Assembly: GCA_041650335.1 (NCBI GenBank) | Contig: JBAZLK010000001.1 | Span: 36,940-100,939 of the forward strand | DNA length: 64,000 bases | Direction of reading: 5' to 3' | From: Patescibacteria group bacterium | GTDB lineage: Bacteria; Patescibacteriota; Patescibacteriia; JAHIZJ01 | Shown here: in pieces, positions 26,168 through 44,584 of the stretch | Numbering within the stretch: the stretch's first letter is position 1 | How the letters are laid out: each line of letters starts with the position of its first letter | Notes under the pieces: model-generated | What the model was told of the DNA's origin: nothing | Seen by the model: only the letters and a program-made list of their open reading frames with translations | Database searches by the model: none | Position numbers and translations under genes: made by a program

Positions 26168-26257
26168 TGGCGGAGGCGGTAGGATTCGAACCTACGATAC
26201 CTTTGCAGGTATTCCGGTTTTCAAGACCGGCCCGTTCAACCACTCCGGCACGCCTCC
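26168..26257 (-). tRNA. tRNA-Ser: tRNA-Ser (anticodon TGA), long variable arm
   Basis: The reverse complement is GGAGGCGTGCCGGAGTGGTTGAACGG...CCGGT-CTTGAAA-ACCGG...GGTTCGAATCCTACCGCCTCCGCCA. Confidence 0.85.
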
Positions 26258-26294: not shown

Positions 26295-27506
26295 TCAGTA
26301 CTGCGCCCGTGCAGGTATTATAAGGGTTTTTTGACGATATTTCAAGTGGACGATTTGAGGCACGTGGGTCGGGGTCTGGAAAACCAGAATGAGACAAATG
26401 AGACAGTACAAGAGGGTGTCTCGTTTCTTGCCGAGATTGCGCTTTGCCAGCTCTAGTAAGGATTCTTCTCCCTCTGCGCCCCGCAGGCGGCCATTGAGGA
26501 AACCTAAGCGATATGTGACGCCGTCGCTCATCAAGTGCCAGTTCGTGCCTTCCAAAGCCTTCTTTAGGAGCTTTTGCAGGCCATGGACGCTATCATATTC
26601 GGATCGACCTGGTCGGTTATCTTGTAAGGTAAAGTCGATGCTGACGCCTCGCCGAAGCTCAGGCTTGCTGAATTCAAATTTACCGTATCCCGCTTTCTCG
26701 ACGATCGGTGTTAGCAAGCCCAGCAAATCAGCAATCGCCAGCTTCTTCATTTTTGCGACCATTTCGTAGGCTTCTTTGTTTTCTTCCTTGTCATTCAATT
26801 CCTTTGAAAATGCCGTCATCCGGTCGGTTTGGATCACGTACTCCGATCCCTCATTTTCCGACAGGCAGTATTTCTTTCGATCGGCTTCGAAATTCGGATC
26901 AATCGTTTCTTCCGCAGTTTTATCGTCGAGATTCAGCTTGTCCGTTTTCTTATGACCGCAGTTCGGGCAGGAATACACCGTGGTGATGATATTTTCTTTC
27001 CGGGAATTAGTCGACGTCATGTGTGCGGCGCATTTCGGACAAGGCGTGGGACGGGGTTGCCATTCTTCGCCGCCTACCCAGCACGCCCGACGTTTGCCGC
27101 AGTCCGGACAGCGAAAAAAGAAAAGGACGCGGTCTTTTTGACCGTCGACGCTTTCGTGCAGGTCGCAGTCGGTATATTCCATAATCGAGCCACACCCGAG
27201 ACAGCGGATACCGACTGGCTCGATGGCGGCAGCGATTCTTTCATCGCGCTTGCAATCCCGTTCCATCCAGCCGCGAATCGCTTCGGCTTTGTTCCGATAG
27301 CGCTCGCCCGTGATGAAATACATGGCGACATTGACGAAAAGATTCTCGTCAAACGGTTCTTTGGATGTATCCGACCGTTCTCGTTTCGCGTCCACCGCCG
27401 ATCTTCGCAATCTTATTTCCATTCGGCGGCACTCGTCGACAGTGAAACGGTCATAGAGGTCATTGTAATGAGATTCGACTTTGAGGTAGGGCATAAAATA
27501 TCGCAT
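26295..27506 (-). CDS. hypothetical multi-zinc-ribbon protein
   Basis: Three CxxC...CxxC pairs (CLGCGS..CDLH, CPDCGK, CPKC, CPNCGH). Confidence 0.5.
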   Translation of the reverse strand: MRYFMPYLKVESHYNDLYDRFTVDECRRMEIRLRRSAVDAKRERSDTSKEPFDENLFVNVAMYFITGERYRNKAEAIRGWMERDCKRDERIAAAIEPVGIRCLGCGSIMEYTDCDLHESVDGQKDRVLFFFRCPDCGKRRACWVGGEEWQPRPTPCPKCAAHMTSTNSRKENIITTVYSCPNCGHKKTDKLNLDDKTAEETIDPNFEADRKKYCLSENEGSEYVIQTDRMTAFSKELNDKEENKEAYEMVAKMKKLAIADLLGLLTPIVEKAGYGKFEFSKPELRRGVSIDFTLQDNRPGRSEYDSVHGLQKLLKKALEGTNWHLMSDGVTYRLGFLNGRLRGAEGEESLLELAKRNLGKKRDTLLYCLICLILVFQTPTHVPQIVHLKYRQKTLIIPARAQY

Positions 27507-28137
27507 TCAAGCTAAAATTCGCTTAGGGCGCTTAATAAGCAGTTTGGATTGAATGAAAAATCGACTGCTGTGGATAACTTAAGTATAATCCAATTTAGCT
27601 AACAAAAGCCAAAAAAATACGAAACGGATTTAAACGGTTAATATCCGTTGTCGTTCGTTTTCATTTCCTCGTCCATTGACCAGAAATGACCAGTATGTAT
27701 ACTCAAAACGTACGCTGAATTTGAAAGATTTGGCGCCACGAAGATTCATTAACGCAACCAAGAAAGGAACCAAAGCCCGAAAGGATTACACCCCGATGCG
27801 CGCCACGGAAGAACATCGGCGTACGTCGCGGGATCGAGCGACAAGCTCGTTATGTACCGCAGAGGCAGAGAGTGGTTTAAGCTAATGCTCGTCATGTAGC
27901 TTATATACCCCCACTCTTTCCGAATACTCGCCATACGTCTTGGCTCAAAAAACGCGCTAGCGTGAGGAAAGAGGTCGAACCGCGTGTGGGTACGACTCAA
28001 AGCTCCGCTAACGAACGAAGAGGCCCGGAGTAAATGACGAATTTTGGTCAGCCCCTAATCCTGGGAACCAATTTTAGTCGTTTATACTGCGCCTCTTTTT
28101 GCTTTGCCCTAAGGAGGCCAGGAAGGAGATCAACACC

Positions 28138-29460
28138 ATGAACAACCCAAACCTCAAAATCCACTACGTCGACGTCAACGAATTGAAACCGTCCGAGTAC
28201 AACCCCCGCGTCTGGGACAAGCAGGCCATCCACGATCTGACCGAGAGCATAAAGCGTTACGGTCTAGTTGAGCCACTGTTATGCAACGGTGCCTCCAGTC
28301 GTCGCAATATAGTCATAGGGGGTCACTTCCGACTGAAGATCGCAAAAGACCTCGGCATTGAGACAGCGCCGGTAGTGTACGTGAACATTCCTGACATCGA
28401 AAAGGAAAAAGAGCTGAACTTGCGTCTGAACAAAAATACGGGCGCATTCGACTTGGACCTGTTGGCGACACTCGATGAGCGTTTTCTCGCTGATATCGGT
28501 TTCTCCTCCGAAGAACTGGACGACATTTTCGAGATTGAAGAGACGCCGGGAGTGTTCGATCTTGAACGGGAGCTCAAGAAACTGGATATCAACAACATTG
28601 AAATCCAGAAAGGCGACGTCTACCGACTTGGAGACTCGAAAATCATGTGCGGTGACAGTACCATTGAAGCGGATATGCTGAAACTCATGAACGGCGAGAA
28701 GGCCGATATGTGCCTAACTGACGCGCCCTACATCCTCGATTATCTCAGGGGTAAAAAGAAAAACGGCAAGCCGACCGAGGGATTTGGATTCAAACGTGAT
28801 CGCAGGTACCTCGAGACGGACAGCTTGCCGGAGAACTTCAGCGAATTGTGGATGGGCAATGTCGCCAAGGTTCAGAAGGACGACTTCTCTATCATTGCGT
28901 ACGAAAATTGGAAGAATATTCCGACCATTTGGGGCGAGATGGCTAAACACTGGAAAATCAAGAACATGATCGTCTGGCACCTCCCGAACCGTACCCAAGG
29001 ATTCGCCGCTAAGTATAAATTCTTCTCCAAGCACGATATCGTCATGGTAGGCACGCAAGGGAATGTTGTCTTGAATCAAGAGTCGGAAGAGACGCTGCTT
29101 CAGAACGAATATGAAACGGCGCTGTACGCCATCTCGGGGAGGCCCCAATGGGAGGGCTATGAAAAGGGCAAGAAAATCTGCCCGACCGACTTCATCGAGT
29201 ACAACGCCGCGGATGAGAAGAGTTCAGGCCAAGGGATCATCTTCGGTACAAAACCCGTGCAGATACTTATCCCGTATCTCAAGGTACTAACCAAGCGGGG
29301 CGATCTCGTGCTAGAACCTTTCGGCGGGTCGGGCAGTACGTTAATCGCCGCCGAGAAAATGAACCGACGCTGCTTCCTAATGGAAAAATCTCCGGTCTAT
29401 GCCGAAGTCATCCGCAAGCGCTGGGAAAATCTGACTGGTCGTAAAGCAACAAAAATATGA
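28138..29460 (+). CDS. ParB-like nuclease domain fused to beta-class DNA (N6A/N4C) methyltransferase
   Basis: SD AAGGAGG..GGAGA upstream. The N-terminus carries NPR and GGHFRL ParB motifs. Motif IV is TDAPY (a DPPY variant) and precedes motif I LEPFGGSGST. Confidence 0.8.
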   Translation: MNNPNLKIHYVDVNELKPSEYNPRVWDKQAIHDLTESIKRYGLVEPLLCNGASSRRNIVIGGHFRLKIAKDLGIETAPVVYVNIPDIEKEKELNLRLNKNTGAFDLDLLATLDERFLADIGFSSEELDDIFEIEETPGVFDLERELKKLDINNIEIQKGDVYRLGDSKIMCGDSTIEADMLKLMNGEKADMCLTDAPYILDYLRGKKKNGKPTEGFGFKRDRRYLETDSLPENFSELWMGNVAKVQKDDFSIIAYENWKNIPTIWGEMAKHWKIKNMIVWHLPNRTQGFAAKYKFFSKHDIVMVGTQGNVVLNQESEETLLQNEYETALYAISGRPQWEGYEKGKKICPTDFIEYNAADEKSSGQGIIFGTKPVQILIPYLKVLTKRGDLVLEPFGGSGSTLIAAEKMNRRCFLMEKSPVYAEVIRKRWENLTGRKATKI

Positions 29461-29885
29461 ACGACCTTTATCAAGAAACCATCGAGCAAAGGCAGGTCAG
29501 AGACAAGGAATCGATCTTGGAATACTTGCGGAAGATGCCCATCGCGCAGATCGCCTGCGAGCGAGCCGGAATAGCCCGAGCCACCTACTACCGTTGGCGA
29601 AACGAGGATAAAGAATTCAAGAAAGCGGCGGACGAGGCAATGCGGGACGGCGAGGCATTCATCAACGACTTAAGCGAAAGCCAAGTCGTGACGCTGATTA
29701 AAGACCGGAACCTGCCAGCCATCACCCTATGGCTGAAGAATCATCATCCCGCGTATGCCGACAGGATCAAAGTGGAGGCGAGCATAAGCCGTACGGACGA
29801 GCCGTTGAGCGCGGAGGAGGAAAAGCTGGTGCGGCACGCGCTGGCCTGCCTGCGCGGAACCGCTAACGAGAAATCCAATGATTAA
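29457..29885 (+). CDS. phage terminase small subunit-like HTH protein
   Basis: HTH region AGIARATYYRWRNEDKEF. It overlaps the TerL start by 8 nt. Confidence 0.5.
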   Translation: MNDLYQETIEQRQVRDKESILEYLRKMPIAQIACERAGIARATYYRWRNEDKEFKKAADEAMRDGEAFINDLSESQVVTLIKDRNLPAITLWLKNHHPAYADRIKVEASISRTDEPLSAEEEKLVRHALACLRGTANEKSND

Positions 29886-31407
29886 CTTACCGCCCGACGT
29901 CAGCAAGGCGATCGCGGGCAACCAGAAGGTGCGTATAGCGATCGCGCGGCAAAGTCATCTTGCCTTCTTCACGGTCTATCTGCACAACTACATCAAATAC
30001 CCATTCGCACCGTTCCATGATGATCTGTTTGATATCACCGAGCGGAACGATAACCGTTATGCCGTGATTACCGCGTTTCGCGGATCGGGAAAATCCACGA
30101 TCCTCACGCTGTCATATCCGCTGTGGGCGATCATCGGACGGCCGCAAAAAAAGTTCGTGCTTATCTTGGGCAACACCATGCATCAGGCGCAAACCTACAT
30201 GAAGCACATCAAGAGCGAGTTGGAAGGGAACCTGCTGCTCCGTCGCGACCTCGGGCCATTTCAGGAGGAGAACAATTGGCAAGCGGCATCGATAGTCCTC
30301 CAAAAGTATGGCGCTCGCATCACTTGCGCTTCTTACGAGCAGGGCATACGCGGCCTGCGGCATCGGCAGTACCGTCCCGATCTCATCATTTGCGACGACA
30401 TCGAGGACTTGGATTCGGTCAAAACGCTGGAAAGCCGGGACCGAACGGCCGACTGGTTTAAGGGCGAAGTGCTACCCGCCGGAGACAGAAACACACGCGT
30501 CTTCGTCGTCGGAAACTTGTTGCATGAGGATTCCTTGATCATGCGCCTGCGGAAGGAAATCGAGGAGGGCCAGTTCGACGCCGATTATCGGGCATATCCT
30601 TTTCTCGACGAAGCGGGGAAAGCCGCGTGGCCGGGGAAGTTCCCTGATCAAGCGAGCATTGATGCGGAACGGCGAAAGATTAACGACGAGGCGGCCTTCC
30701 AGCGGGAGTACATGCTGAACATAATCCCTGACGTGGATCGGGTCATTCAGAAGGAGTGGATACGCTATTACGACGACCTGCCGGACGAGGAGTCGGGATG
30801 GCGATACGGTCGGGCGGGGATCGGGGTCGATCCGGCTTTGTCGCAGCGAGACGGCGCGGACCGCACGGCCATGGTCGCGGCGAAATCCTTCATCAAGGGA
30901 AAAGAGTTGCGGGTGTACGTCCTGCCGTATCCGGTGAACGAGCGGCTCACGCCGCTCCGGTCGATACAGCGGGCGAAGAAAGTCGCGAGTCGCGTCGAGT
31001 CGGGCCGAAAGACGCCCTTGTTCGTCGAGGACGTCGCCTTCCAGCGGCATCTCATCGATGACCTGAAAAAAGAAGGATATCCGGCCATCGGCGTGCCAAC
31101 GCGCGGCTTGGACAAGCGCGGCCGATTGCTTGCGGTGAGTCAGTACCTCGAGAATGGCCAGGTGTTTTTCCCTCGTCATGGAGCGGAAATCCTGATCAGC
31201 CAGCTCTTGGGATTCGGCGCGGAGCGGTACGATGATTTGGTGGACGCGTTCACGATCATCGTGGGCGAGCTGTTCCAGCACCCGCCCTCGCCGCCGCCAA
31301 CGTGGATGAACGACGATGATGATAACGATCCGCAAATCGACGACGGATTCGGTTATCCGACAGACGGCAAGCCGATCTTCTGGGACATTTTAAATAAGCA
31401 GTTCTAG
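29878..31407 (+). CDS. phage terminase large subunit
   Basis: Walker A AFRGSGKST and Walker B LIICDDIED. The C-terminal RNase H-like nuclease has GIGVDPA and DDLVDAF acidic motifs. Confidence 0.85.
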   Translation: MINLPPDVSKAIAGNQKVRIAIARQSHLAFFTVYLHNYIKYPFAPFHDDLFDITERNDNRYAVITAFRGSGKSTILTLSYPLWAIIGRPQKKFVLILGNTMHQAQTYMKHIKSELEGNLLLRRDLGPFQEENNWQAASIVLQKYGARITCASYEQGIRGLRHRQYRPDLIICDDIEDLDSVKTLESRDRTADWFKGEVLPAGDRNTRVFVVGNLLHEDSLIMRLRKEIEEGQFDADYRAYPFLDEAGKAAWPGKFPDQASIDAERRKINDEAAFQREYMLNIIPDVDRVIQKEWIRYYDDLPDEESGWRYGRAGIGVDPALSQRDGADRTAMVAAKSFIKGKELRVYVLPYPVNERLTPLRSIQRAKKVASRVESGRKTPLFVEDVAFQRHLIDDLKKEGYPAIGVPTRGLDKRGRLLAVSQYLENGQVFFPRHGAEILISQLLGFGAERYDDLVDAFTIIVGELFQHPPSPPPTWMNDDDDNDPQIDDGFGYPTDGKPIFWDILNKQF

Positions 31408-31785
31408 GAGGGCTCAAGGCGGAAAAGTTATCGACAAGTTGTCGACTGGACTTCCACGACCTTCGCGGTACCGTAGGAATAGCGGAATATCCTTGCAGAA
31501 GGCCTGAAAAAGGGGTAAACTGAGAGTAATTCGAGGCCTTCGGAAAAGGTTGTTTCGCCCGAATGTTCATTCTGCAATAACCATCTTTACCTAAACCGTT
31601 CTTCGGAACGGCATGGTATATAAAACCCTTGGAAGATACTGAACCCCGTGTTCAGCGACTCTTCCAAGGGTCATATCCCGAAAGGGGTATGGGCGGCCGA
31701 AAGGTTGCTAGCTGGCGCGGGGTTTTGTGTATCTGGAGCCAGCAACACTAATGGAACAACTTACTTCTTGAAGGGAGGTGATCAC

Positions 31786-32313
31786 ATGGCAGATGAAAAA
31801 CAACCGAAGAAGAAAGGCCGTAAAGGTCTCTGGATTACCTTAATCGTTGTCGTATTCGCGATTATCGGTTTGGCCAGCATGAACAAAGAAAACAAAAACG
31901 CGAATACGAATTCGACAGCGCAGGCGAACGTGACGGCGAAAAACGCTAATACTCAACAAGTCACTCTGGCAGAACATAAGGTAATACCAAAGGATACGCA
32001 CGGTACGACGAAGATTGTTTATGCGATAGTCAATCCGAATATCACCCGAGCGGAAGTCATCGCAATAAATGACTCGTTAATCAGTCAGTACTCCTCCGGC
32101 CTAACGCATCTCACGATCGAGTACTTCGATGACGAAACGGTTTCGGGGGACTACTTCAGTAAAATAACCGACCTGTTGAGTCAAGATAAGACGACAGAGG
32201 CTGATAATCTTGCGAAACACTATCTCGCGACCTACACCATGAATACAGTGTCAGGTCTTAACCAGCTTGAGTATAAAGAGAACGGAGAATTGGTATCGAT
32301 CAAGAATTATTAA
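31786..32313 (+). CDS. membrane-anchored protein with N/T-rich linker
   Basis: GGGAGGTG SD precedes the ATG at 31786. TM helix followed by NKENKNANTNST low-complexity sequence. Confidence 0.5.
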   Translation: MADEKQPKKKGRKGLWITLIVVVFAIIGLASMNKENKNANTNSTAQANVTAKNANTQQVTLAEHKVIPKDTHGTTKIVYAIVNPNITRAEVIAINDSLISQYSSGLTHLTIEYFDDETVSGDYFSKITDLLSQDKTTEADNLAKHYLATYTMNTVSGLNQLEYKENGELVSIKNY

Positions 32314-32381
32314 CATTGCGGGTATACAAAACCGCTTTCGATGAGAAAGTGGTTTTGTCATTATGGTTCAGTTGTTTTGCC

Positions 32382-33194
32382 CTAGAAGAGATCAAATGAT
32401 TCTTCGTTTGTTTGATGACGATTTTCCCTCTCTTGAGCACCAATGTCCCAGTCGAGATTCTCGCGTAATAGTTTGATATCTCGATTCTCTAAGTCCTGTA
32501 AGAAAGAATCTAACGCGTCAAAGTTTACAATATCAATTAAAAAATATTTCATGATATCAGTTGAGTCCCCGCTGCTTTTAGGTTGCTTGTATGAATAATC
32601 AATTTCAAGTTGGAATGGTTCGGTAATGGGAGCATGTCCCGAACTCGCATCACGCTTATGCAGGTTTTGTAGCGAATCAGTAATTATGAGAGGAAAATCA
32701 ACATGATAGGAGGAGGGGATGTTTCTCCCGTTACTAAAGAAAATAAGACCGTTGAGACATTGGTTCATCGCCTCGAAAACGTCATCACGGTTGCCGCTTT
32801 TTGCCGCTATTTTAGCAACGGGGACATTATCCACGTAATGATGCTTTGCTAAACCCTGATCCTGAGTAACATAATAATCCGGCTTATCGTTTAAAATGCT
32901 ATTATCCTTTGCCAATTCCGTAGCGGACTTCATATTCTTTTGTCTGAACCAAAAAACTACGGGATCCTTTATATGTTTACATTCAATAAATAGCCTGACG
33001 GCAAATACCTCGTTCCTAACTTTATACTTTTTCGTTGCGATAATATCAATTTCTCTAGGCTTCCCAGTCGCCGGATCGTTATAGTACGGACTGATAGTTG
33101 CCTCCCATTCGTGACTATGTAGAAAATCGGCGACTTTAAATTGCAAGTCGTTTCCACTATTATCAATTATTTCTTGGAATTTATCCTTAGTCAT
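32382..33194 (-). CDS. PD-(D/E)xK nuclease-family protein
   Basis: EIDIIATKK ... RLFIECKH matches the D...ExK core. Confidence 0.55.
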   Translation of the reverse strand: MTKDKFQEIIDNSGNDLQFKVADFLHSHEWEATISPYYNDPATGKPREIDIIATKKYKVRNEVFAVRLFIECKHIKDPVVFWFRQKNMKSATELAKDNSILNDKPDYYVTQDQGLAKHHYVDNVPVAKIAAKSGNRDDVFEAMNQCLNGLIFFSNGRNIPSSYHVDFPLIITDSLQNLHKRDASSGHAPITEPFQLEIDYSYKQPKSSGDSTDIMKYFLIDIVNFDALDSFLQDLENRDIKLLRENLDWDIGAQERENRHQTNEESFDLF

Positions 33195-33206
33195 ATACGG
33201 ATTAGC

Positions 33207-34721
33207 TCAAATATAAAGAGAAACCAACTCTTTCCATACCGCGACCATCGCGTAGGTGTCGAATCCGCAGTACTCTTTCAGATTACTGGCGATAGTTTTG
33301 CTTTCCTCCGGAGTAGTCGCCGGAGATACCATCTTCCACCATGCATCCGAGGCCTGTCCGCCTTCCTGAATAGCCAGATTCCCATATCGAAGGTCGGGCA
33401 TGAGGGCTGGCAGAACATATTTAATGGAATGACTTCCGAAGAATTTCGGATGAACGTAATGCTGTTTTTGGAATATTTCCATGAGGTCATAGATTCTCGC
33501 ATTCAGATCCTCAAGGAATTCTTGATGCTGAGGGTGTCGCGAAGCAAGCTCGCGATGAACTCCCATTTCGAAGCATTGATTCCATACTAATATCCGGCCC
33601 CCGTCTTGCACGTGTCGCTGGAGTGTAGCGATAACTTGCCCGGAAGGATCGCTTCGTTCTTCGTGGAGATACTCGTAATGCTTAAGCTCACCGTTTGGCG
33701 CATCAAGGACATGGAGCGACATCTGAAATGGAATCCGTTGGTACGGCTTGAAACCGTTGAATATCGGAATAGCGGGTGCGAAGGTCTCGTAGTCGAGAAA
33801 ATACAGCGGAAATGTCAATGCGCCGAGCTTCTCCTTGATCGTTTTCAGGTCGATCATGGACTGTTGCGTTTGGTGCGCTCGTACTTGATTCCATTGGATA
33901 TCGGAGAGCTCGGTATCCTCCGGCACGTGGGCGATGTCGAAAATACGGCGTTCAACGAATGTACGGAGCTTCTTCTTGCTTACTCCGATACGGGCGATAT
34001 CGTGAACCGAGTACTCTGGAACGTCGGGGTTGGAGTATGAAAAGGTCGTACAGTGGTTATTGCGTCCGAGATAAATGCACTGGCATTCACCGGCTGGTTC
34101 TTTTTCTTGCAGAAGGTAATTCTTCGCGGCGGTCATTTCAGCCTCTATTTTCGGCAGTCGCGCACGAACCTTTTCGGTTTCGTCCTCGATCACAAGGAGC
34201 TGCTCGATATCGAGATCGCCCTGACGGACGTAGTCTTTGTTCAGATGGATGATATTATATTTCCCTGTTCGTATTTTGGCTCGATTCAATACGGATACTT
34301 GGAACGCAACATCATCGATGTGGTCGCGATCGGAACCCTCTTTGAGCGAGTTGGTACCTTTGACTTCGTATAAGTCCCAGCACTCGTTGGTTTCGTCATA
34401 AGCGAGAATATCGTTCCGAGCGATGAAACCGTCGACGATAAAGGTCGCCTGAAACAAGGTCGGGACCTTTGATGTCATGTGCCGGATCGTCTCTTGGCAA
34501 GCTTCGTCGCCGTAACCCACGATCTCAATTCCGTCGGGGAAAAGATTGCGAGCGATTGAATCAACTTCGTTTCCTTGTTCCAGAAGGTGTTTCTCGAACT
34601 CTGAAAGCTGATAATGCTGGTGTAAGTCTGGACGGTGAAGTTTCAGCCAGGTGTTTTTTGAGCACTGTAAAAATTCGAGGAAGACTGTTTTTGAGATGAG
34701 AATTTGTGGACTATTTATCAT
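33207..34721 (-). CDS. DUF2779-like protein: Cas4/RecB-like PD-(D/E)xK nuclease N-domain (Cys cluster) + DEDD-type 3'-5' exonuclease C-domain
   Basis: N-terminal FIVDGFIARNDILAYDE...LYEVKG with ECQCIYLGRNNHC. C-terminal YFLDYETF...RIPFQMSLHV. Confidence 0.65.
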   Translation of the reverse strand: MINSPQILISKTVFLEFLQCSKNTWLKLHRPDLHQHYQLSEFEKHLLEQGNEVDSIARNLFPDGIEIVGYGDEACQETIRHMTSKVPTLFQATFIVDGFIARNDILAYDETNECWDLYEVKGTNSLKEGSDRDHIDDVAFQVSVLNRAKIRTGKYNIIHLNKDYVRQGDLDIEQLLVIEDETEKVRARLPKIEAEMTAAKNYLLQEKEPAGECQCIYLGRNNHCTTFSYSNPDVPEYSVHDIARIGVSKKKLRTFVERRIFDIAHVPEDTELSDIQWNQVRAHQTQQSMIDLKTIKEKLGALTFPLYFLDYETFAPAIPIFNGFKPYQRIPFQMSLHVLDAPNGELKHYEYLHEERSDPSGQVIATLQRHVQDGGRILVWNQCFEMGVHRELASRHPQHQEFLEDLNARIYDLMEIFQKQHYVHPKFFGSHSIKYVLPALMPDLRYGNLAIQEGGQASDAWWKMVSPATTPEESKTIASNLKEYCGFDTYAMVAVWKELVSLYI

Positions 34722-35446
34722 AAAGCAACCTTAGGAGACGATGTTCTAAACTGGCTTATTCTTTCAATGTGCTGATTGCGAAACAATTTGAATTTATCTT
34801 TCCATTCAATATTAAGCAAATCCTTAAAACATAGTTCTATAATCTCTAGAATCAAGATATAACAATGAATTGTATATAGGATAGACCGATGAAGATTTGG
34901 TAAATCATTAATATCGGAGAAGATATTTTGATGATGATTCTTGTCAACTGTTATACGACTAAATATTGTCGATGAAAAATTTGAGTGTGTACCGTACTCT
35001 CGAGTTAAGTTATATGCGTCCTTGATTTTGTCGGTCTCTCGCCCCACCCATCTTGGTGAAAATGCCTTTTTAAAACCCTCGGTATCGTGCCGCTTCAACA
35101 GCCAGATTTTTGATTTTACTGGTGATATTCGTATGTGGTTTGCATAACCCGCGGCCTCAAGGGATCGACTAGTCATAGAATACGATTCTGCGATATGGGC
35201 TGAAAATATTAATTCCGAAGAACAGAAAAGACCTCTCAAGGAAATCCAGAATAACTCATATTCCACGAGTTTATTTTCTGGTACCGTAGACCCTAGCGCC
35301 TCTGTAAACGTGCAATACAAATCGATGAGCTGATTAACAGCACTAGTCTCGGCAGGAAAGTGCTGTGTCGTAGCTTTTACGTTTACGTTGTTTAATTCCG
35401 AGATTTTGGCAATATCAAGCGGCATTCTCGTCGAAATGTTATCCAT
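34718..35446 (-). CDS. hypothetical protein (AT-rich), translationally coupled to the DUF2779-like gene
   Basis: 4-nt overlap with the downstream start. No recognisable motif. Confidence 0.45.
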   Translation of the reverse strand: MDNISTRMPLDIAKISELNNVNVKATTQHFPAETSAVNQLIDLYCTFTEALGSTVPENKLVEYELFWISLRGLFCSSELIFSAHIAESYSMTSRSLEAAGYANHIRISPVKSKIWLLKRHDTEGFKKAFSPRWVGRETDKIKDAYNLTREYGTHSNFSSTIFSRITVDKNHHQNIFSDINDLPNLHRSILYTIHCYILILEIIELCFKDLLNIEWKDKFKLFRNQHIERISQFRTSSPKVAL

Positions 35447-35463
35447 TTTTTAATACTTATGTA

Positions 35464-37758
35464 TTATGCGATGGTATGCCACCCCGTCCAATCACCCTTG
35501 AGCGTCGCGTCCCAGCGATATTTAGGTTGGCCGTTGAGATACCACGTTTTTCCGCGTTGAATCACAATGCCGCTTGAAACATCCTTCCGTTTGAGTGAAG
35601 TAGTATAGGTCTGCAATGCTTCGGCCTTCGCCTTTGTATAGGTCGAGCCCTCACGGTCGTGCTCATCTTTCGTTTCAAAAATGCCTATCCGACCATCTTT
35701 GTATTGGACAATATAATCAGGATAGAACGTGTGAACCCCGTCAATATATTCGTATCTGACCCCGAAGAATTCCTTCGATCCTTCACCGTTCTTCCACCAC
35801 CATAAAACAGTTGATTGTTGATCAATATACTCTTCAAAGTGCCGCTCGGGATCAGAACGTTCTTTGTCTAACAGGCATTTATCATAAGCATACCGCTTAG
35901 CCATAAATGGCTCGACTGTATACTGGTTGAAGTATTGTGGCTCCGGAAGTTCATATGGATCTAAGCGCTCACTGGCTGCTGTGCGTTCCCGTACTTCGGC
36001 ATCCCGGACGTGCTTGTAGGCAGCGATGGCTTCAGTCAGAATGCGATCGAATATGGCTCGGTTCTTTGGATGCGTCACGATCTTTTGGACCATCAGCAGT
36101 TCCTCTTTCCAATCGGCGCTTCCGAACGCGTCTTTAAACCATAGGTAAATAGATGATTTGACCGCTGGTACTGATCGCTTGACGTTTGTGAATGATCCGA
36201 GTCGGTGACGGATAAATTCTTCAAACTCGGCTAGAACTTGATTCGATGATTTTTCTAATTGAACCGTTGCCGATGGATCAATTCGACCTACCAGTTCGTC
36301 AAAGGTTTTTGTTTTCAGGGTAGTATCAGCAATCAGCTCTTCTTGGATTGTTTTCAGATTCATGAGCATTTGCCTGCTTGCCGCAACGATGTTTTCACGT
36401 TTACTCTTGGCTAGTTTAAGGATGCGGTTGGCAGTTGCGGCAAAGACCGGCGTGAAACTTGACGCCACATCTCCGTAGTCAGCGCGGGAAATATAGAACG
36501 AGCGCAAACGGATCGGCTTATACGCCTTTATCCTATGAACCGGGATGTCGACGATGATATTCGGATTGTATTCTTCGTGTTTGATGGTGAAGTCTAGCTG
36601 GTTCGTGAAGACGTATCCTTTGTTGAGGATTTCATTTTCATAGTGCTTCTGTTCCGGCATTCGGAGAATTCGACCGACGGTCTGTATCTCGAATACTTCA
36701 TTACCAGGTTTGCGAAACTTCACGAGGATTTGTGCGCGGGGGCAGTCCCAGCCAGTATCGATTGCTTGCTTGAAAATAAGAAATTCAACTTCGTTCTCCG
36801 GATCGGCAATGTCGTCAATCGTCTCGGTCTTTTGTTCTGACAACCAAATAGCCAGTTTGCTCACCGGAACACCTTTACTCTTCAGGAATCCTAATGCAAA
36901 CTGTTTGACGTCTTCTCCAGCTTCAGAGGCCGGAATCTGAATCAGAACGAGTGGGTTAACGCTTGATCCGACTTCTCGATATGCTTTAGCGAGATCCTGA
37001 CGTTTCTTCCAAGCCACTTCGAGAACAAGTTGCTGTGAATCTTTGGCGGAACGGGAGAGAGATTCAAGGTTTTCGTTGATAACGATTTCCTTCTTAATAA
37101 TACCTTCACGGATAACATCATACGGATCGACTTCAACCCACTCTGCCTGATGACGGGACGTGTCGCTCGCAGTGACAGTTGTTTTAGGAGTGGCGCTGAC
37201 TTCAATAGCAACATCGGCTTGAATTAAATCACGCAACTCTGTTGTCCGTTCTGCCCCAGCACCAACATGGCTCTCGTCAATGACGAGGATCAGCGCCCGT
37301 TTCTTACGGGTTGCTTCGAGGACTTCAAGGAAGTTCACTTTTTCACCCTCACGCATGAGCGTGTTCTTCCATTCACCGGTAGCCCGATCTCGTGTCCGTA
37401 ATTTTTCCCAATTAGCTACCACAACTTCGTTACGGGCGATAATTGTTCGGCTTCCGCCGAATTCCTCTTCAATCAGGCTGACTTTCGGCGCACCGCCAAA
37501 ATACGACTCTAAGCTATGCTTGCTTTGCAGATGCAGATCGCCTTTGCCAATCGAGACCCAGAGATAACAGAAATCATCCTCGGGTAGCTGGCGGCTAATC
37601 TCCTGAATGGCTTTTGCCATCATTAATGTTTTACCGCTACCAGTTGGGGCTTTAAAAACGCATATCTCACCCCGTCCTTCATGTATAAGCAGGGATCGCA
37701 CCGCAGTGACGATTTCGTCGACCGCTTTTTGTTGGTAGTCCTTAAGTACCCAGTTCAT
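35464..37758 (-). CDS. res: Type III restriction enzyme Res subunit (SF2 helicase + endonuclease)
   Basis: APTGSGKT and LVIDESH motifs, plus a C-terminal FETKDE nuclease motif. It overlaps mod by 17 nt. Confidence 0.85.
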   Translation of the reverse strand: MNWVLKDYQQKAVDEIVTAVRSLLIHEGRGEICVFKAPTGSGKTLMMAKAIQEISRQLPEDDFCYLWVSIGKGDLHLQSKHSLESYFGGAPKVSLIEEEFGGSRTIIARNEVVVANWEKLRTRDRATGEWKNTLMREGEKVNFLEVLEATRKKRALILVIDESHVGAGAERTTELRDLIQADVAIEVSATPKTTVTASDTSRHQAEWVEVDPYDVIREGIIKKEIVINENLESLSRSAKDSQQLVLEVAWKKRQDLAKAYREVGSSVNPLVLIQIPASEAGEDVKQFALGFLKSKGVPVSKLAIWLSEQKTETIDDIADPENEVEFLIFKQAIDTGWDCPRAQILVKFRKPGNEVFEIQTVGRILRMPEQKHYENEILNKGYVFTNQLDFTIKHEEYNPNIIVDIPVHRIKAYKPIRLRSFYISRADYGDVASSFTPVFAATANRILKLAKSKRENIVAASRQMLMNLKTIQEELIADTTLKTKTFDELVGRIDPSATVQLEKSSNQVLAEFEEFIRHRLGSFTNVKRSVPAVKSSIYLWFKDAFGSADWKEELLMVQKIVTHPKNRAIFDRILTEAIAAYKHVRDAEVRERTAASERLDPYELPEPQYFNQYTVEPFMAKRYAYDKCLLDKERSDPERHFEEYIDQQSTVLWWWKNGEGSKEFFGVRYEYIDGVHTFYPDYIVQYKDGRIGIFETKDEHDREGSTYTKAKAEALQTYTTSLKRKDVSSGIVIQRGKTWYLNGQPKYRWDATLKGDWTGWHTIA

Positions 37759-39475
37759 GGATTTCTTGGTAGATATCTAAAATAGGCTGTGGAATCGGCT
37801 CAAGACGAATATTTTGCCAGTAGTCGAATTCGTGCTGATCAAGACCAAGCGGATCAAGGGTGAAGCAGTAGAGGATCTTGTCACCCGTGAAGCGGTCGAA
37901 TTCTTTCTTCAAAGCAGATAAACCTGATCGGTCGAGCGCGTAATACACGCCCATAATACGTTGACCTTGGGTAAATGTCCGAAACTGCGTCGTCTCCTTC
38001 TTCAGGTCGTAGATACCTTCGCGGACGCTGAGCATTTCCGTACACTCGTTTGTAATGCGAACCTTGATCTCGTCACGGTTAATTGATTTCTTCACGAATG
38101 CAGTTTTGAAATAGCGTAGGTTACCGCCGAAACCGGCCACCTTTTCGCCATTGCCATTCTTTTTATATCCCTTTATTACTTTTTCAATGCGTGGATAGCA
38201 AATGTCCGTTGCTATATTATTTTCGTTATTGGTAGAAAGAATAAATTGGCGGTTACCACCATCTTTTTTATTCAACTGTAGAACGGCGTGGCCGGTCGTA
38301 CCCGAACCTGCAAAAAAGTCTAAAACCACAGCATTTTTATTGCCATTTGCTGCCGCAGTTATACAATCAATTACTGCATATAGAGATTTTGGATATGCAA
38401 AGGAACCTCGCTCAATAATTTGGTTAAGTAATTGCGTGCCGTAGTTATTGGCTGAGTATTTGCTATCTGTCCAGACGGTTTTGTAATTGAACCGGTTCTT
38501 GGTGCGTTTGATATCCCAGACACCCCTTCTTTTTAAAAGAATAGCCTGTAGCTCGTCCCTTATGCTCTCAACAGTATGTCGGGCGAAACGCCACTTCCTC
38601 TCAATTCCCTGTGGATCAATTGGATACACTTCGATAACGCCGTCCCTTCTTTTAAGATTTACTGACCTCGGGTGATAACTATCCTTACAAACTTCACCGA
38701 AGCCAACGATTTTACCGTTCTTCACAAGTACGGGGTAGAAACAATTTGCGCCGGCGGTTCTTAATGACTCATCACCTGTTACATCCCTAAAATTACGAAT
38801 GTCTTCGTTGTCTACTTCACGTGTTTGAAGCCCGATATATCGACCTGGTTTTGGATAAATAAAGTAAGCGAATTCGTGAGTATAAGAGAAATTATCCCCC
38901 TGTATGCCCGCAGGATTGTGTACGATTGTTATGCAGGTTATTTCTCGATCAGCAAACAGTTCTTTTAACAACAACCCGAGTGGTTCTTGTTCATTATGAT
39001 CAATTGTACAAATAAGGACGCCTTTTTCAGAAAGCAAGTTCTTTGCTAATCTAAGTCGCTTGCTCATGAAGCTTAGCCACTTGCTATGTCGCCAAGTATC
39101 ATTGTCGTCAACAAAGTTATTGTTGTATTTCCAATCCCGAGAACCAGTATTGTATGGCGGATCAATATAAATCACATCAACTTTCCTTTGGTGTGTATAC
39201 TGCAAAACCGACAACGCGTGGTAGTTGTCGCCTTCGATCAGTAAGTTGACTGGTTTCTCTGGATCGGTTTCGATCGCCCGACCTTTTACTTCTTTGAGAA
39301 CCGGGTAGGCGTTCTCGGCGTCCTGCTCGAATTTTTCTTTTGTGCGCTCTTCATCCCAAATAAGTCCGTACTTTTTTCGGGACTCAAGTTTCTCTATAGT
39401 CTTGAGTAATTCTTCCTTGCTGAGTTTTGAGTAATCCTTTGCCACAAATTTTGTTAATGAGATAACTTTCGGCAA
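37742..39475 (-). CDS. mod: Type III restriction-modification Mod subunit (N6-adenine methyltransferase)
   Basis: Motif IV DVIYIDPPYNTG lies upstream of motif I DFFAGSGTTGHAV. Confidence 0.85.
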   Translation of the reverse strand: MPKVISLTKFVAKDYSKLSKEELLKTIEKLESRKKYGLIWDEERTKEKFEQDAENAYPVLKEVKGRAIETDPEKPVNLLIEGDNYHALSVLQYTHQRKVDVIYIDPPYNTGSRDWKYNNNFVDDNDTWRHSKWLSFMSKRLRLAKNLLSEKGVLICTIDHNEQEPLGLLLKELFADREITCITIVHNPAGIQGDNFSYTHEFAYFIYPKPGRYIGLQTREVDNEDIRNFRDVTGDESLRTAGANCFYPVLVKNGKIVGFGEVCKDSYHPRSVNLKRRDGVIEVYPIDPQGIERKWRFARHTVESIRDELQAILLKRRGVWDIKRTKNRFNYKTVWTDSKYSANNYGTQLLNQIIERGSFAYPKSLYAVIDCITAAANGNKNAVVLDFFAGSGTTGHAVLQLNKKDGGNRQFILSTNNENNIATDICYPRIEKVIKGYKKNGNGEKVAGFGGNLRYFKTAFVKKSINRDEIKVRITNECTEMLSVREGIYDLKKETTQFRTFTQGQRIMGVYYALDRSGLSALKKEFDRFTGDKILYCFTLDPLGLDQHEFDYWQNIRLEPIPQPILDIYQEIHELGT

Positions 39476-39561
39476 ACACCCGAAGTATAGTTGATTTTGG
39501 CTGAGGAATCAAGAAAAAGACCTTCTTTTTCAATTGTTGAGTCAGTGTTTTCCCGATCTAC

Positions 39562-41925
39562 TTATTTGTCTAATTCGTAAACATATACTGAATTATCAGC
39601 AAGCTCACGAAAAGTGAAAGGGTATTGGTGTGGTAGTACAAAGTTTTGTCTCGTTTTTTTATAATCTATGTACTCATCCCACCAAGGTTCAAGTTCATGT
39701 GCCGTAAGAAGAATGGGTTTTATCCCTTTTTTAACAAGTTTTTTAAAGCGGTTAATTTCACCACTGGTAAACGCTTTCTTGGTTGTCGAAAATACAAGAT
39801 GGCAAGTTAATCCGCTATTTTGTAATAACCCTCTTGTGGTCAGTAGATTATCTATCTTTTTTGCAGTAATTTGATGACCAGTTTTGCATTCGCCAATCAA
39901 TACCTCATTATCATCTTTGCCTAATCTTTGGCTTAAATTTAGAATCGTTAAATCGGACTCAAAAGCCTCCTTTTTCCCATTGCTTGTCAGAGATAAGTCA
40001 AGCCCCGTGGAATAAAGAAAGTCATTCCCCGAATGCATTTTGTTTGTGAGAAACTGTAAAGTCAGGATTACGGGTATTGCACCTTGTTGCTTGTCACTTT
40101 TACCCATTAGCCCGCTAAGTCGATAGTGTAGTCGCAAGCCATCAACTTGTTTCCCATCGATTTTGATTGGATCAATAACCTCGACAAACTTACTAATCTC
40201 CGAACAATAATCACATAGATATCTATCACTTACATCCTTAAGATTTAGCCAATTTTTTAAGCCGCACTTAGGGCAACGAACCTCAACACCAACTTGAAGT
40301 AAATTGTGTTCAACCATCTCATCAAACACATCACTAGGCGTAATGGGCGTTTTTCCTTTTAGGCCAAATGCGTTCTCGAATTTTTTGAAGGTCTCTTCGT
40401 TTTCATTCTTATCTCGAATAGCTTTCAATACCTCATACTTTAGTTTTTGATGTAAAGGATGCGTCTCCTCAATAAATTTTCTTACACCGGTGATTTTGAA
40501 GATTCGAGCAGACCCCATTAATCCTTGCATTAACGAAACGACCCTCTCAGCAACTAAACCTGGTACACTTTTACTCGCAATAATTGATGCTCGTTCGAAA
40601 ACCTTTGTAATGATGTCATTCTTTGAAATTAGACCAATCCGTATCGTGTCGTCATCAATGTCTGTGATTAGGCTAACAGAAGTGCCTAAGGCCCCCCTTG
40701 TGACCCTTAAACCATGTGGGTCAAAAATTGTTTCTCTCGCATACCATTCGTTGAGGTCAGGAAGAGTAGGTAGGCTGAGAGTAAAACCATCGTCCTCCGT
40801 GCTCATTGGAGGATGCACTGATACCCCAAAACACTGATGTAAAAATCTACTATTATCGTGTTTTGCGAAAGGTTTATCTGATAATTGAATATTTAAACTT
40901 GGTTTTCCATATCTTTGGTTTAAGCCCGCAATAGTGGTAGTAGAACTAAGAATGTTATATCCGGGGACAATGTTTAATCCATTCCAAGAGATAGTGGAGA
41001 CTTGGGCGTATGCGAATGGTTTATCTTTGGCGGCAATCAAGTCGGCAATAGTTTTTACTTCTGACTCATTCTGTTTGCTGCCTGAATACCAAATAAGAAA
41101 TGAATGACGGTATCCAGTCGTTGGTTTCTTGATTCTACTCAAATGCTCCTTAATATATGGGAGGAAACGTCTAACATTTGATTTCGGAAGAAAAGTTATG
41201 TAACTGCCGGCTGCGCGTATATTCCAAAAATTTAATAGGTCTATAAAGCTTTTACTATCGCCAATATAAACACCCGCATCATGCCTATTTCCACCATATG
41301 AACGTATTTCCTGTTCAGTAAGCGCGAGCGGAGTAACGGTTGATGCGAGTTTTTTTGGGACTGGTCGACGACCGGTCAGTGTAATTTCTTTTGCCTTAAG
41401 TGCTTTTTGAAAATTATGATGGTATTTATACGCTAATTGCTTCTTTGGATACTCACCAAAAAGTAACGGTAAAAGATCTTTGTCAGCATCTTTATTGGAC
41501 CAAGATATTAATGTGCAATTACTATCATCAGTTTTTGAAAATTTAAAATTCGTGTCCCACATCTTTCTGAGAATATGACTGACATCCAGAACATTCACAT
41601 GCTTTTTCTTTCGATTCATGGAGTCTTCGGATAAAAGCAGTTCTGAGTTGTAAGAGGACGGAAGTCTTGCCCAAGAGTATTTTTCTAAGAATTTATTTAT
41701 TTCCGGTGTTTTGGAGATCGGTATTAATGCGTCGACTTGAAATAATTTTACTAGCGCGTGATCAAGACCCTCTTTTGATCCCACGGGAATAAGTGGGTTG
41801 TAAATACCGCCCCACAAAATGGTATTAAGCTTAACGGCCGTTGCTATATCTTGTTTATGACCATCACGAACACAAAACCCGAGTCTTAGTGGTCGATATT
41901 CAATCCTAACATCATCAAAAGTCAT
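39562..41925 (-). CDS. large hypothetical protein (787 aa): unassigned N-terminal ~550 aa, CxxC-X17-CxxC zinc ribbon, C-terminal PD-(D/E)xK-like motif
   Basis: CPKCGLKNWLNLKDVSDRYLCDYC zinc ribbon, then ESDLTIL...VLIGECKTG. The gene is AT-rich and has no SD. Confidence 0.55.
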   Translation of the reverse strand: MTFDDVRIEYRPLRLGFCVRDGHKQDIATAVKLNTILWGGIYNPLIPVGSKEGLDHALVKLFQVDALIPISKTPEINKFLEKYSWARLPSSYNSELLLSEDSMNRKKKHVNVLDVSHILRKMWDTNFKFSKTDDSNCTLISWSNKDADKDLLPLLFGEYPKKQLAYKYHHNFQKALKAKEITLTGRRPVPKKLASTVTPLALTEQEIRSYGGNRHDAGVYIGDSKSFIDLLNFWNIRAAGSYITFLPKSNVRRFLPYIKEHLSRIKKPTTGYRHSFLIWYSGSKQNESEVKTIADLIAAKDKPFAYAQVSTISWNGLNIVPGYNILSSTTTIAGLNQRYGKPSLNIQLSDKPFAKHDNSRFLHQCFGVSVHPPMSTEDDGFTLSLPTLPDLNEWYARETIFDPHGLRVTRGALGTSVSLITDIDDDTIRIGLISKNDIITKVFERASIIASKSVPGLVAERVVSLMQGLMGSARIFKITGVRKFIEETHPLHQKLKYEVLKAIRDKNENEETFKKFENAFGLKGKTPITPSDVFDEMVEHNLLQVGVEVRCPKCGLKNWLNLKDVSDRYLCDYCSEISKFVEVIDPIKIDGKQVDGLRLHYRLSGLMGKSDKQQGAIPVILTLQFLTNKMHSGNDFLYSTGLDLSLTSNGKKEAFESDLTILNLSQRLGKDDNEVLIGECKTGHQITAKKIDNLLTTRGLLQNSGLTCHLVFSTTKKAFTSGEINRFKKLVKKGIKPILLTAHELEPWWDEYIDYKKTRQNFVLPHQYPFTFRELADNSVYVYELDK

Positions 41926-41937
41926 AAAGGATATAGG

Positions 41938-42405
41938 TCACGAACACTTTATTATTCCATATAATCGAATTACTGCCTCATAAATCACCGTAAAAACCCC
42001 AGCAAAGATCGTTGCCCATACAATGATGATAAAAATACTATATCGATACTTAACCAATGATTTACATTCCAGATCGTGGATAACCTCACCCATCATCAGT
42101 CCATCAAGAGTAATTTCAATTCCGCCATCTACTTGTCGAGCAAACTTTTTCACTCGCAAATTACCCATTGCTGGATTAAGATTATTTAAATAATCAAGAT
42201 CGCTTGTTTTGAGAATGTTTATTTTGATGTATTCGCCGTTTAGGGGCGACTCAAGATGGTGATGGTTATCGACCGTCCACTTTAGTATTTGTTTCTCAAT
42301 TTCCCAAACTTGACGTCGTGTTTGATGAGTTTTCTTCTCTGAAAATTCATACTCTTGATAGAGTTCTAGCTTTCTAAAAAACTTTATTTGAATTGGTAGC
42401 TCCAT
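41938..42405 (-). CDS. small protein with C-terminal TM helix
   Basis: 155 aa with the C-terminal TM segment YSIFIIIVWATIFAGVFTVIY. It lies 12 nt upstream of the 787-aa gene. Confidence 0.45.
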   Translation of the reverse strand: MELPIQIKFFRKLELYQEYEFSEKKTHQTRRQVWEIEKQILKWTVDNHHHLESPLNGEYIKINILKTSDLDYLNNLNPAMGNLRVKKFARQVDGGIEITLDGLMMGEVIHDLECKSLVKYRYSIFIIIVWATIFAGVFTVIYEAVIRLYGIIKCS

Positions 42406-42423
42406 ATTCTAAATCATCAATAT

Positions 42424-42957
42424 TCAGTTGTTCTCTGCGACATGGACACGAAACCCACAGGTTCGACAAAGTCCGTTTGTGCTTGTAGCATTTTTGTTAT
42501 ACTCAAATCTAGCTGAGCCGCAATCTGTACACGTGGTAACGCCGTATCTCTCCTTTAGGCCTTTAATTATTGCGGCAACACTTTTACAATTTCGCGCATA
42601 TCGATCAACCATTTCTTTGTTACCCAAATACCCCTGAACCCATATATCTGTAGTAATCATACCCGCAGCAGCTTCTTTATATAGAATTTTTCCTTCCTTT
42701 AGAAGCTTTTCCCAATACTGTCTCGTGAAGCCATAATCATTTGAGAGGTCGGAGGATGTCATAAATCGGGCTTCTGGGCTTAGATATCCTTTGTCTCGCA
42801 TCAACTTAACCGACTCCGCTATTCCGTCTGCCAATTCTTTTTCTTTCTCATCCGTCGTGACTTCAGCAGGCATAGTAAGCATTAAAGATAAATTGCCACC
42901 GCTATTTATACCGGCGTGCCAAGAGTATTTACGTGTCTGAGTTCGTGTTTTAAGCAT
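42424..42957 (-). CDS. hypothetical protein with C-terminal zinc ribbon
   Basis: C-terminal CTDCGS...CRTCG zinc ribbon. First gene of the 3-gene module. Confidence 0.45.
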   Translation of the reverse strand: MLKTRTQTRKYSWHAGINSGGNLSLMLTMPAEVTTDEKEKELADGIAESVKLMRDKGYLSPEARFMTSSDLSNDYGFTRQYWEKLLKEGKILYKEAAAGMITTDIWVQGYLGNKEMVDRYARNCKSVAAIIKGLKERYGVTTCTDCGSARFEYNKNATSTNGLCRTCGFRVHVAENN

Positions 42958-43135
42958 AAAACAAGGATATCATTATTGGTTGCATTACGCAACCACCCAA
43001 ATAAACACAAAGATCAGATTGCATAAAGATATGGCTCGAAAGAATCATTGAGCGGTTTTTCAAGGCGTTTCAGGAAAAAGTTATCAACTCCACCCACTCT
43101 GGACGCCCCGCAGGGGTTGCGTCATCCCTTAGAGC

Positions 43136-44467: not shown

Positions 44468-44584
44468 AGGATTTCTAATCGTAGCAACCCCCCGCCGGGT
44501 TCTCCGGCAGGGGGTTGGGGTATTGCCAACACAAGCTTCTATTCTTTTTGAGCCACGTGGGTCGGCTCCGATAAAAGATTGTGT

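Follow-up and report, generated by a model that had tools for sequence, protein, structure and literature searches.

Does a nuclease gene packed tightly between two smaller genes in a bacterial defence island form a dedicated system with them? The question is raised by a stretch of 64,000 nucleotides from a Patescibacteria group bacterium (GenBank assembly GCA_041650335.1, contig JBAZLK010000001.1, positions 36,940 to 100,939; the whole stretch is referred to as the window), in which a gene for a 504-amino-acid (aa) protein of the DUF2779 family lies between genes for proteins of 242 and 270 aa. An earlier note on this DNA had taken the three for a nuclease-based module. Our analysis favours another reading, to which we give a probability of about 0.6: the DUF2779 protein is a canonical, predicted dual nuclease whose gene does not stand at the core of a three-gene system but is the conserved border, on the downstream side, of a slot for variable cargo in a phage-derived integrated element of about 18 kb.

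Conservation of the three-gene arrangement

The genes in question continue, on the minus strand, an array that begins with a Type III restriction-modification (R-M) system:

37742–39475, minus strand: Type III R-M Mod (Pfam N6_N4_Mtase; PADLOC MTase_III)
35464–37758, minus strand: Type III R-M Res (Pfam ResIII; PADLOC REase_III)
34718–35446, minus strand: 242-aa alpha-helical protein of a rare family, remotely DUF5677-like
33207–34721, minus strand: DUF2779-family protein of 504 aa (Pfam PF11074)
32382–33194, minus strand: stand-alone, restriction-endonuclease-like PD-(D/E)xK protein of 270 aa, last of the transcription unit
32326–32358: bidirectional terminator-like hairpin with a 14-bp stem, which closes the minus-strand unit behind the 270-aa gene as well as a plus-strand gene for a small membrane protein

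The three genes lie exactly as the earlier note had described them. The sequence ATGA joins the stop codon of the 242-aa gene to the start codon of the 504-aa gene in a 4-nt overlap, a spacer of 12 nt leads from the 504-aa gene to the 270-aa gene, and Res and Mod, whose PADLOC matches are as strong as E 2.6e-70, lie directly upstream in the same orientation. All three open reading frames (ORFs) are real genes, since each has homologues: 3 for the 242-aa protein (91 with a profile), more than 2585 for the 504-aa protein and 122 for the 270-aa protein. Within the run of five genes that starts with Mod and ends with the 270-aa gene, intergenic gaps range from −17 nt (a 17-nt overlap) to 17 nt, and no terminator-like hairpin was found between them, the next strong one being that at 32326–32358; because of this spacing and the lack of an internal terminator, the five genes are probably co-transcribed here. 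The tight same-strand packing, the nuclease folds predicted for two of the three proteins and the setting in a defence island are what would recommend a dedicated three-gene nuclease-based defence module.

Conservation of the neighbourhood was assessed at 82 further Patescibacteria loci carrying relatives of the DUF2779 gene (45–90% identity, examined over ±6–8 kb), comprising the loci L001 and L002 and 80 further genome loci (45–62% identity, ±6 kb), which rank closest to the query in similarity. At none of the 82 (by tblastn for the 80 genome loci) does a homologue of either flanking gene lie near DUF2779, and the most frequent neighbour family of any kind is found at no more than 10 of them. 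In L001, whose DUF2779 protein is 90% identical to that of the window, the gene again lies behind Type III Mod and Res, and an unrelated 344-aa SIR2-like gene occupies the slot of the 242-aa gene. In L002 (73% identity), DUF2779 follows a 1517-aa superfamily 1 (SF1) helicase and an unrelated 173-aa gene. BLASTP revealed no similarity between the 242-aa protein and the products of the genes in the same position in L001 and L002, or between the 270-aa protein and the product of the gene downstream in L001. Conversely, homologues of the 242-aa and 270-aa proteins were found in six other contexts, all of them without DUF2779, and the 242-aa family has only three close members against thousands for DUF2779.

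Base composition also separates the three genes. The description of all three as AT-rich holds for the 242-aa and 270-aa genes (GC content 0.38 and 0.39), but not for DUF2779, whose GC content of 0.48 and GC content at third codon positions (GC3) of 0.55 resemble those of the host genes (GC3 0.55–0.61); the GC3 of the two flanking genes is 0.38 and 0.40. In codon composition DUF2779 is host-like, whereas its flanks are foreign. The association of these five array genes, Mod and Res included, is recent and without conservation, and we reject the three-gene module as very improbable, the flanking genes being unrelated recent arrivals in a mobile defence island. Lack of conservation as neighbours in related genomes is the outcome that the earlier note had itself named as refuting its module. 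The link of DUF2779 to Type III R-M, and to defence genes in general, is better supported than its link to either of them.

A predicted dual nuclease

By its sequence, the 504-aa protein is a canonical DUF2779 member with both predicted catalytic sites intact, and apparently an active enzyme. The Pfam profile matches residues 307–432 over the whole model (positions 1–126 of 126; E 4.9e-40; 137.1 bits against a cut-off of 23.3), in agreement with the assignment made earlier from the letters alone. The best 120 homologues are 485–526 aa long, with coverage of 96–100% and identity of 55–90%, and the named ones among them come from Patescibacteria or from unclassified metagenome-assembled genomes. 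The NCBIfam mollicute UU173 family scores below threshold (52.7 bits; cut-off 225). No significant PADLOC, PHROG or PDB sequence match was found for the 504-aa protein, and in PADLOC-DB 2.0 no family reached E ≤ 0.1 with any of the 504-, 270- and 242-aa proteins.

Residue invariance was scored on an alignment of 48 sequences. In the N-terminal Cas4/RecB-like domain (approximately residues 1–230), D104, E119 and K121 are invariant, as are four cysteines, C20, C213, C215 and C224, a 1+3 set that probably holds an Fe-S cluster. A helical linker separates this nuclease domain from the C-terminal exonuclease domain (approximately residues 300–504), in which D310, E312, E385, Y484 and D488 are invariant and make up the motifs ExoI (D310-x-E312), ExoII (F384-E385) and ExoIII (Y484-x3-D488). 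These motifs, together with the modelled RNase H-like fold, identify the domain as a DEDDy-type exonuclease with predicted 3'-5' activity. The motifs on which the earlier note had relied, EVK (119–121), C213-x-C215...C224, FLDYETF (308–314) and PFQMSLH (331–337), are all present and fall on invariant columns.

Since sequence and profile searches of the PDB with the 504-aa and 270-aa proteins returned chance-level matches only, folds were compared instead. The AlphaFold2 (AF2) model of the 504-aa protein has a pLDDT of 89.5 and a pTM of 0.84. Searched with Foldseek against the PDB, its N-terminal domain matched MGME1, Cas4 (4r5q), Cas4-Cas1 (7mi4), RecE, Dna2 and AdnAB, with a probability of 1.0 for 4r5q, 7mi4 and 5zyv, and its C-terminal domain matched RNase T (3v9u) with a moderate probability of 0.87. 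Among the viral models of BFVD, the matches were phage Cas4 (probability 1.0) and a DEDDh exonuclease. Both halves of the domain reading made earlier, a RecB/Cas4-like core with a cysteine cluster and an RNase H-like exonuclease, are borne out by invariant residues and fold matches together. Whole-length matches in BFVD were to giant-virus proteins of the YprB type, from Cafeteria roenbergensis virus (CroV; E3T4R0, E 8.5e-16, TMq 0.58), Faunusvirus and Sylvanvirus; the plan of a Cas4-like domain joined to an RNase H-like exonuclease is therefore found in Nucleocytoviricota as well.

The two-nuclease architecture of DUF2779 is not new. PF11074 was placed in a clade of RNase H-like exonucleases and noted to co-occur with the Cas4-type DUF83 domain (Majorek 2014), and the quasi-essential protein MMSYN1_0389 of JCVI-syn3.0 was described as a fusion of Cas4-like and DEDDh/y domains (mSphere 2026). 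MMSYN1_0389, Mbov_0804 and the NCBIfam UU173 family share with the 504-aa protein the same two domains, the D..ExK motif and the DEDD motifs with a tyrosine before the last aspartate. The Patescibacteria clade differs in keeping all four Cas4-type cysteines, of which MMSYN1_0389 has only two, and in its length of about 500 aa against about 650 aa; in addition, the gene studied here lies in a mobile defence island and that for MMSYN1_0389 in a minimal chromosome.

More distant relatives resemble one domain or the plan of both. The PD-(D/E)xK core and the 1+3 cysteine pattern of the N-terminal domain recall Cas4 (Pcal_0546, 4R5Q; SSO0001, 4IC1; Cas4-Cas1, 7MI4), and the core that of MGME1, RecE, Dna2 and AdnAB. 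Unlike Cas4, the DUF2779 domain is fused to a second nuclease, and the window holds no cas1, cas2 or CRISPR array: its 64 kb yielded neither a CRISPR repeat family nor a tandem array, and no cas domain was found among 20 of its proteins compared with Pfam (21.9–32.3 and 32.4–48.3 kb). No sequence-level match to a PDB Cas4 was found, and the N-terminal domain is at most a solo Cas4-like domain. The spacing of its last three cysteines, C-x-C-x8-C, appears to differ from the C-terminal pattern of Cas4. The C-terminal domain has the RNase H-like fold and the three Exo motifs in common with DEDDh/DEDDy exonucleases (RNase T, 3V9U; MrfB, 8UN9), and differs by a glutamate for aspartate in the second acidic motif and a tyrosine in place of histidine. 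Proteins of the COG2251/YprB type (PF13482), which include the giant-virus homologues, follow the same Cas4-like plus RNase H-like plan, a parallel noted by Majorek 2014, but belong to a different Pfam family, are only 9–13% identical to the DUF2779 protein and are often fused to AAA or helicase domains.

The integrated element and its probable cargo slot

The reading that we favour turns on the surrounding element, whose remaining features are as follows:

26168–26257: tRNA-Ser(tga)
28099–31407, plus strand: ParB-DNA methyltransferase, TerS and TerL (phrog_498, E 1.4e-76; phrog_4044, E 3.6e-09; phrog_38, E 4.2e-79)
31588–31709, plus strand: LOOT RNA (Rfam RF03000), between the terminase genes and the DUF2779 array
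from ATG 31786, plus strand: small ORF of 175 aa, a predicted membrane protein, 3' of the LOOT RNA
39562–42957, minus strand: three low-GC cargo genes (787, 155 and 177 aa), between integrase and Type III R-M
43136–44467, plus strand: large serine recombinase, the integrase (Pfam Resolvase, Recombinase, Zn_ribbon_recom; phrog_95, E 2.7e-61)
44585–44674: tRNA-Ser(gct), adjoining the serine integrase

The element occupies about 18 kb (26295–44674) between the two tRNA-Ser genes, and host genes resume with tRNA-Ser(tga) and DsbA on one side and GIY-YIG and ClpB on the other. Because it has an integrase, a ParB-methyltransferase and both terminase genes (TerS, TerL) while capsid, portal and tail genes are lacking, we regard it as a satellite-like element or decayed prophage in the Patescibacteria genome. 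A megablast search with the region returned nothing from E. coli genomes and plasmids. Its plus-strand backbone genes (28099–31407) converge on the DUF2779 array. By GC3 its genes fall into three classes: the backbone (integrase, ParB-methylase and terminases) at 0.66–0.73, DUF2779 at 0.55, and the cargo at 0.33–0.49, within which the genes of 787, 155 and 177 aa span 0.33–0.38.

Comparison with L001 is the most informative. Its recombinase stands at the same relative position as the integrase of the window; the integrases are 88% and the DUF2779 proteins 90% identical, while Mod and Res are 52–57% identical and the accessory genes have been swapped. Because the flanks are so much better conserved than what lies between them, and because the accessory genes differ, this contrast is the pattern that marks a cargo slot with conserved borders. 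The order integrase, variable cargo, DUF2779, LOOT RNA with small ORF, and terminase recurs in L007 and L020, and its part from integrase to LOOT RNA recurs in L001 within the DNA available. Homologues of the terminase/ParB-methylase backbone adjoin DUF2779 in L007, L020, L021, L024, L031 and L083. In the window, the slot would hold the Type III R-M system, the three low-GC genes and the 242-aa DUF5677-like gene. Such an arrangement resembles P4/P2-type hotspots, found in phage satellites and in prophages, and serine-recombinase-linked islands, in which conserved flanks (here integrase and DUF2779) bracket swapped defence cargo, and serine recombinases have been reported as markers of defence loci (bioRxiv 10.1101/2025.10.07.681051). 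It differs from these in that the element is one of Patescibacteria and that DUF2779 is no known hotspot flank.

The fixed place of DUF2779 between integrase and LOOT RNA/terminase in the window, L007 and L020, and from integrase to LOOT RNA in L001, could also mean that the protein serves the element itself, as a recombination or replication exonuclease or an anti-restriction factor. Phages commonly encode Cas4-like exonucleases, which DUF2779 matches in fold, and giant viruses encode the same two-domain architecture. Against this, no homologue of DUF2779 was found in 50,697 phage records and no PHROG matched it, most DUF2779 loci have no mobile-element genes within 6 kb, and its GC3 of 0.55 sets it apart from the backbone at 0.66–0.73. 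We consider a service to the element unlikely.

Several observations concern the LOOT RNA. It was also detected at L007 7605–7722, L020 7231–7357 and L002 1102–1224, with scores of 80–90 bits against a gathering score of 46, and the small ORF lies 3' of it in L007 and L020 as in the window. The RNA of L007 and L020 shares the strand of DUF2779 and follows that gene at about 95 nt; the cassette of the window has the opposite orientation to DUF2779. Its distribution suggests that this orphan LOOT RNA belongs to the backbone of the mobile element. Of the low-GC cargo, the 787-, 155- and 177-aa proteins gave no significant Pfam, PADLOC, NCBIfam or PHROGs match and may represent novel defence cargo. 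Inspection by eye of the 787-aa protein shows a CxxC...CxxC pair and, at the C-terminus, 'D...E-C-K', a motif by which it could be another PD-(D/E)xK nuclease. In L001, a UvrD helicase gene precedes Type III Mod, echoing a published association of UvrD-Cas4 with Type III systems, and the 344-aa protein (L001 6957–7991) carries a GAGAS motif and matches SIR2_2 weakly (E 4.6e-4).

The 242-aa gene is recently acquired cargo and no conserved partner of DUF2779. Only 3 close homologues of its product were found among 5.8 billion clusters, and a profile search of 1.84 billion representatives gave 91 remote relatives. In an alignment of 45 profile matches with the 242-aa protein, H154 is the sole invariant residue; a HEPN-like R-x4-H reading was dropped, the arginine not being conserved in the remote relatives. 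The gene probably starts at Met8 (ATG 35425), giving a protein of 235 aa, since all homologues begin there. DUF5677 (PF18928), which a recent report found enriched beside serine recombinases, is matched by 4 of 46 relatives (best E 4e-07) and not by the 242-aa protein itself in Pfam; it is a lead for this protein, not a membership. The sole informative homologue (L003) is flanked by unrelated genes and a gene fragment that looks NUDIX-like by eye, with no DUF2779 neighbour; a 790-aa protein encoded beside it is unrelated to the 787-aa protein of the window.

The 270-aa gene is likewise independent cargo, a separate insertion on the other side of DUF2779. The earlier call of a PD-(D/E)xK protein is supported, because an invariant motif and fold matches to AF1548 and RLE domains agree: among 40 sequences of the family, E48, D50 and C72-K73 never vary and E71 occurs in at least 90%, and the N-terminal half of the AF2 model (pLDDT 91.7) matches AF1548 (1y88) with a Foldseek probability of 1.0 and the RLE domain of R2 elements at 0.96–0.97. 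The model further includes a long helix and, towards the C-terminus, a beta domain. The protein could be assigned to no family of Pfam, PADLOC or NCBIfam. Elsewhere its homologues follow an Eco57I-type N6-methylase, a Type III Res or a Dcm/Vsr pair, or stand alone, none of them near DUF2779; this may be a family of restriction endonucleases not yet catalogued, or of nucleases accessory to R-M systems. Homologues at L004 8001–8840, L006 8001–8852 and L088 7001–7822 lie next to methyltransferase or R-M genes.

Defence neighbourhoods and the possible role of DUF2779

The 82 loci and the window make up 83 DUF2779 neighbourhoods, and in at least 17 of these defence-type genes lie directly upstream of DUF2779 and are co-oriented with it, most of those immediately upstream at a gap of less than 30 nt:

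Type III restriction: window, L001, L021, L042, L078 (5 of 83)
ResIII: L025
Type I HsdR with HNH: L050
PDC-S37/Hhe-like SF1 helicase with MTES_1575 nuclease: L017, L020, L048, L053
MkoC-like helicases: L002, L052, L082
SNF2 (BrxH/DrmD-like): L024
HerA: L042
AAA_13/PDC-S06: L044
Type III Mod-like match alone, 4.4 kb upstream, the weakest case: L043

Of the 116 same-strand genes at positions −1 and −2, 18 are long ORFs (at least 600 aa); at +1 to +4 the figure is 10 of 184. In the DUF2779 tree the defence-linked loci are dispersed, with different cargo in sister taxa. A conserved adaptor between helicase and DUF2779 in seven loci was considered and ruled out, the small genes there being mutually unrelated by BLASTP. 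Earlier work had reported Type III R-M systems with Cas4-like nucleases as neighbours, and an over-representation of solo-Cas4 genes in genomes of the candidate phyla radiation (CPR) (Hudaiberdiev et al. 2017). In the UvrD-Cas4 fusions of that study, a Cas4-like nuclease shares one array with Mod and Res, as it does here, and the L001 array also includes UvrD; the DUF2779 protein differs in that it is not fused to UvrD, belongs to another Cas4-like lineage and has an additional DEDD domain, and its link to Type III systems is confined to 5 of 83 loci.

DUF2779 also occurs on 32 plasmids. The contexts on 8 of these were inspected, from Cyanobacteriota, Campylobacterota, Pseudomonadota and Bacillota, and all 8 look like defence islands, among them:

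Planktothrix plasmid: DEAD helicase, MORC-like GHKL ATPase, DUF2779, PLD
Aliarcobacter plasmid, context 1: QatABCD, DUF2779, with a dGTPase further on
Aliarcobacter plasmid, context 2: NACHT-DUF4145, DUF2779, dGTPase
Aliarcobacter plasmid, context 3: HerA/PLD, DUF2779, DEAD helicase, dGTPase
A. butzleri plasmid: resolvase, PD-(D/E)xK, DUF2779, WYL
Rhodoferax plasmid: DUF2357, macro, AAA+, DUF2779, WYL, PLD
Selenomonas plasmid: NERD, AAA, metallophosphoesterase, DUF2779

On the Aliarcobacter plasmids L091, L094 and L095, DUF2779 and the dGTPase are conserved flanks around which QatABCD, NACHT-DUF4145 and HerA/DUF6602/PLD have been swapped, an arrangement that looks like a plasmid-borne defence hotspot.

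The domains of DUF2779 point to a nuclease of DNA ends that would act in both polarities. Loaded on ends or nicks, it would degrade DNA in the 5'-3' direction through the Cas4-like site and in the 3'-5' direction through the DEDD site. In small genomes without RecBCD or AddAB, this activity might clear or resect broken DNA. Beside helicase-nuclease defence genes, the most plausible task of DUF2779 would be to complete the degradation of DNA that an adjacent restriction or helicase system has already cut, as its conserved position behind such genes suggests.

A broader proposal, which we put forward only tentatively, is that DUF2779 represents an unrecognised family of defence-island nucleases: a dual-polarity shredder, repeatedly recruited as the last gene of operons with differing sensors or motors, that would complete the destruction of the DNA these engage. 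The heads of such operons would be Type I and Type III restriction subunits, Hhe/PDC-S37/Mokosh-like SF1 helicases, SNF2, HerA, NACHT, MORC-like GHKL and Qat. In CPR bacteria the gene would, in addition, be the fixed border of a swappable slot on satellite-like integrase/terminase elements.

A number of points weigh against the reading of DUF2779 as border of a defence-cargo slot, and they lead to a serious alternative. Around DUF2779, housekeeping neighbours (FolD, DsbA, RpoD, DnaG, HisRS) are found in about 65 of the 83 loci, and such neighbourhoods fit a general role in repair or salvage as well as, or better than, one in defence; moreover, the 80 loci nearest to the query may over-represent the mobile context. 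The homologues in mollicutes have the character of maintenance genes: JCVI-syn3.0 depends on MMSYN1_0389 to the point of quasi-essentiality (mSphere 2026), and growth of M. bovis with host cells requires the DUF2779 gene Mbov_0804. For no DUF2779 member does the literature report a nuclease activity or its polarity, an Fe-S cluster or a phage phenotype. As for the locus itself, co-transcription is read from gene spacing alone, and a comparison of the tRNA-Ser end with the other end of the island for att-like direct repeats gave only chance-level matches of 15–25 nt.

According to this alternative, DUF2779 is purely a housekeeping gene of reduced genomes, acting in DNA-end repair, recombination or nucleotide salvage, and the defence cargo marks only an integration hotspot upstream of it. 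The host-like GC3 of DUF2779, the quasi-essentiality in JCVI-syn3.0 and the growth defect in M. bovis, the lack of a PADLOC model that matches it and the mostly vertical evolution of solo-Cas4 genes (Hudaiberdiev et al. 2017) would all fit. Yet the defence neighbours are co-oriented with DUF2779 and for the most part less than 30 nt away, which gives them the look of an operon instead of genes separated from it by a promoter; the same association is found on plasmids of four other phyla, where the argument from a chromosomal hotspot fails; and at four loci DUF2779 lies inside an integrase/terminase element. We therefore regard a pure housekeeping role as rather doubtful, if well worth keeping in view. 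One sign of an empty integration site, tRNA-Ser(gct) beside DUF2779 in other genomes, was looked for and not found.

Taken by itself, the 504-aa protein is one more member of a large, uncharacterised family with a published architecture, and the useful part of the analysis is its context: DUF2779 repeatedly follows, in operon-like fashion, defence helicases and R-M systems that are exchanged for one another, in five phyla and on plasmids. We offer the hypothesis that DUF2779, a family quasi-essential in JCVI-syn3.0 and abundant in CPR bacteria, may degrade DNA ends downstream of restriction and helicase systems, which would make it a candidate family missing from current defence catalogues. 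The locus also documents an integrase/terminase element with a slot for defence cargo in Patescibacteria, whose mobile elements are poorly known.

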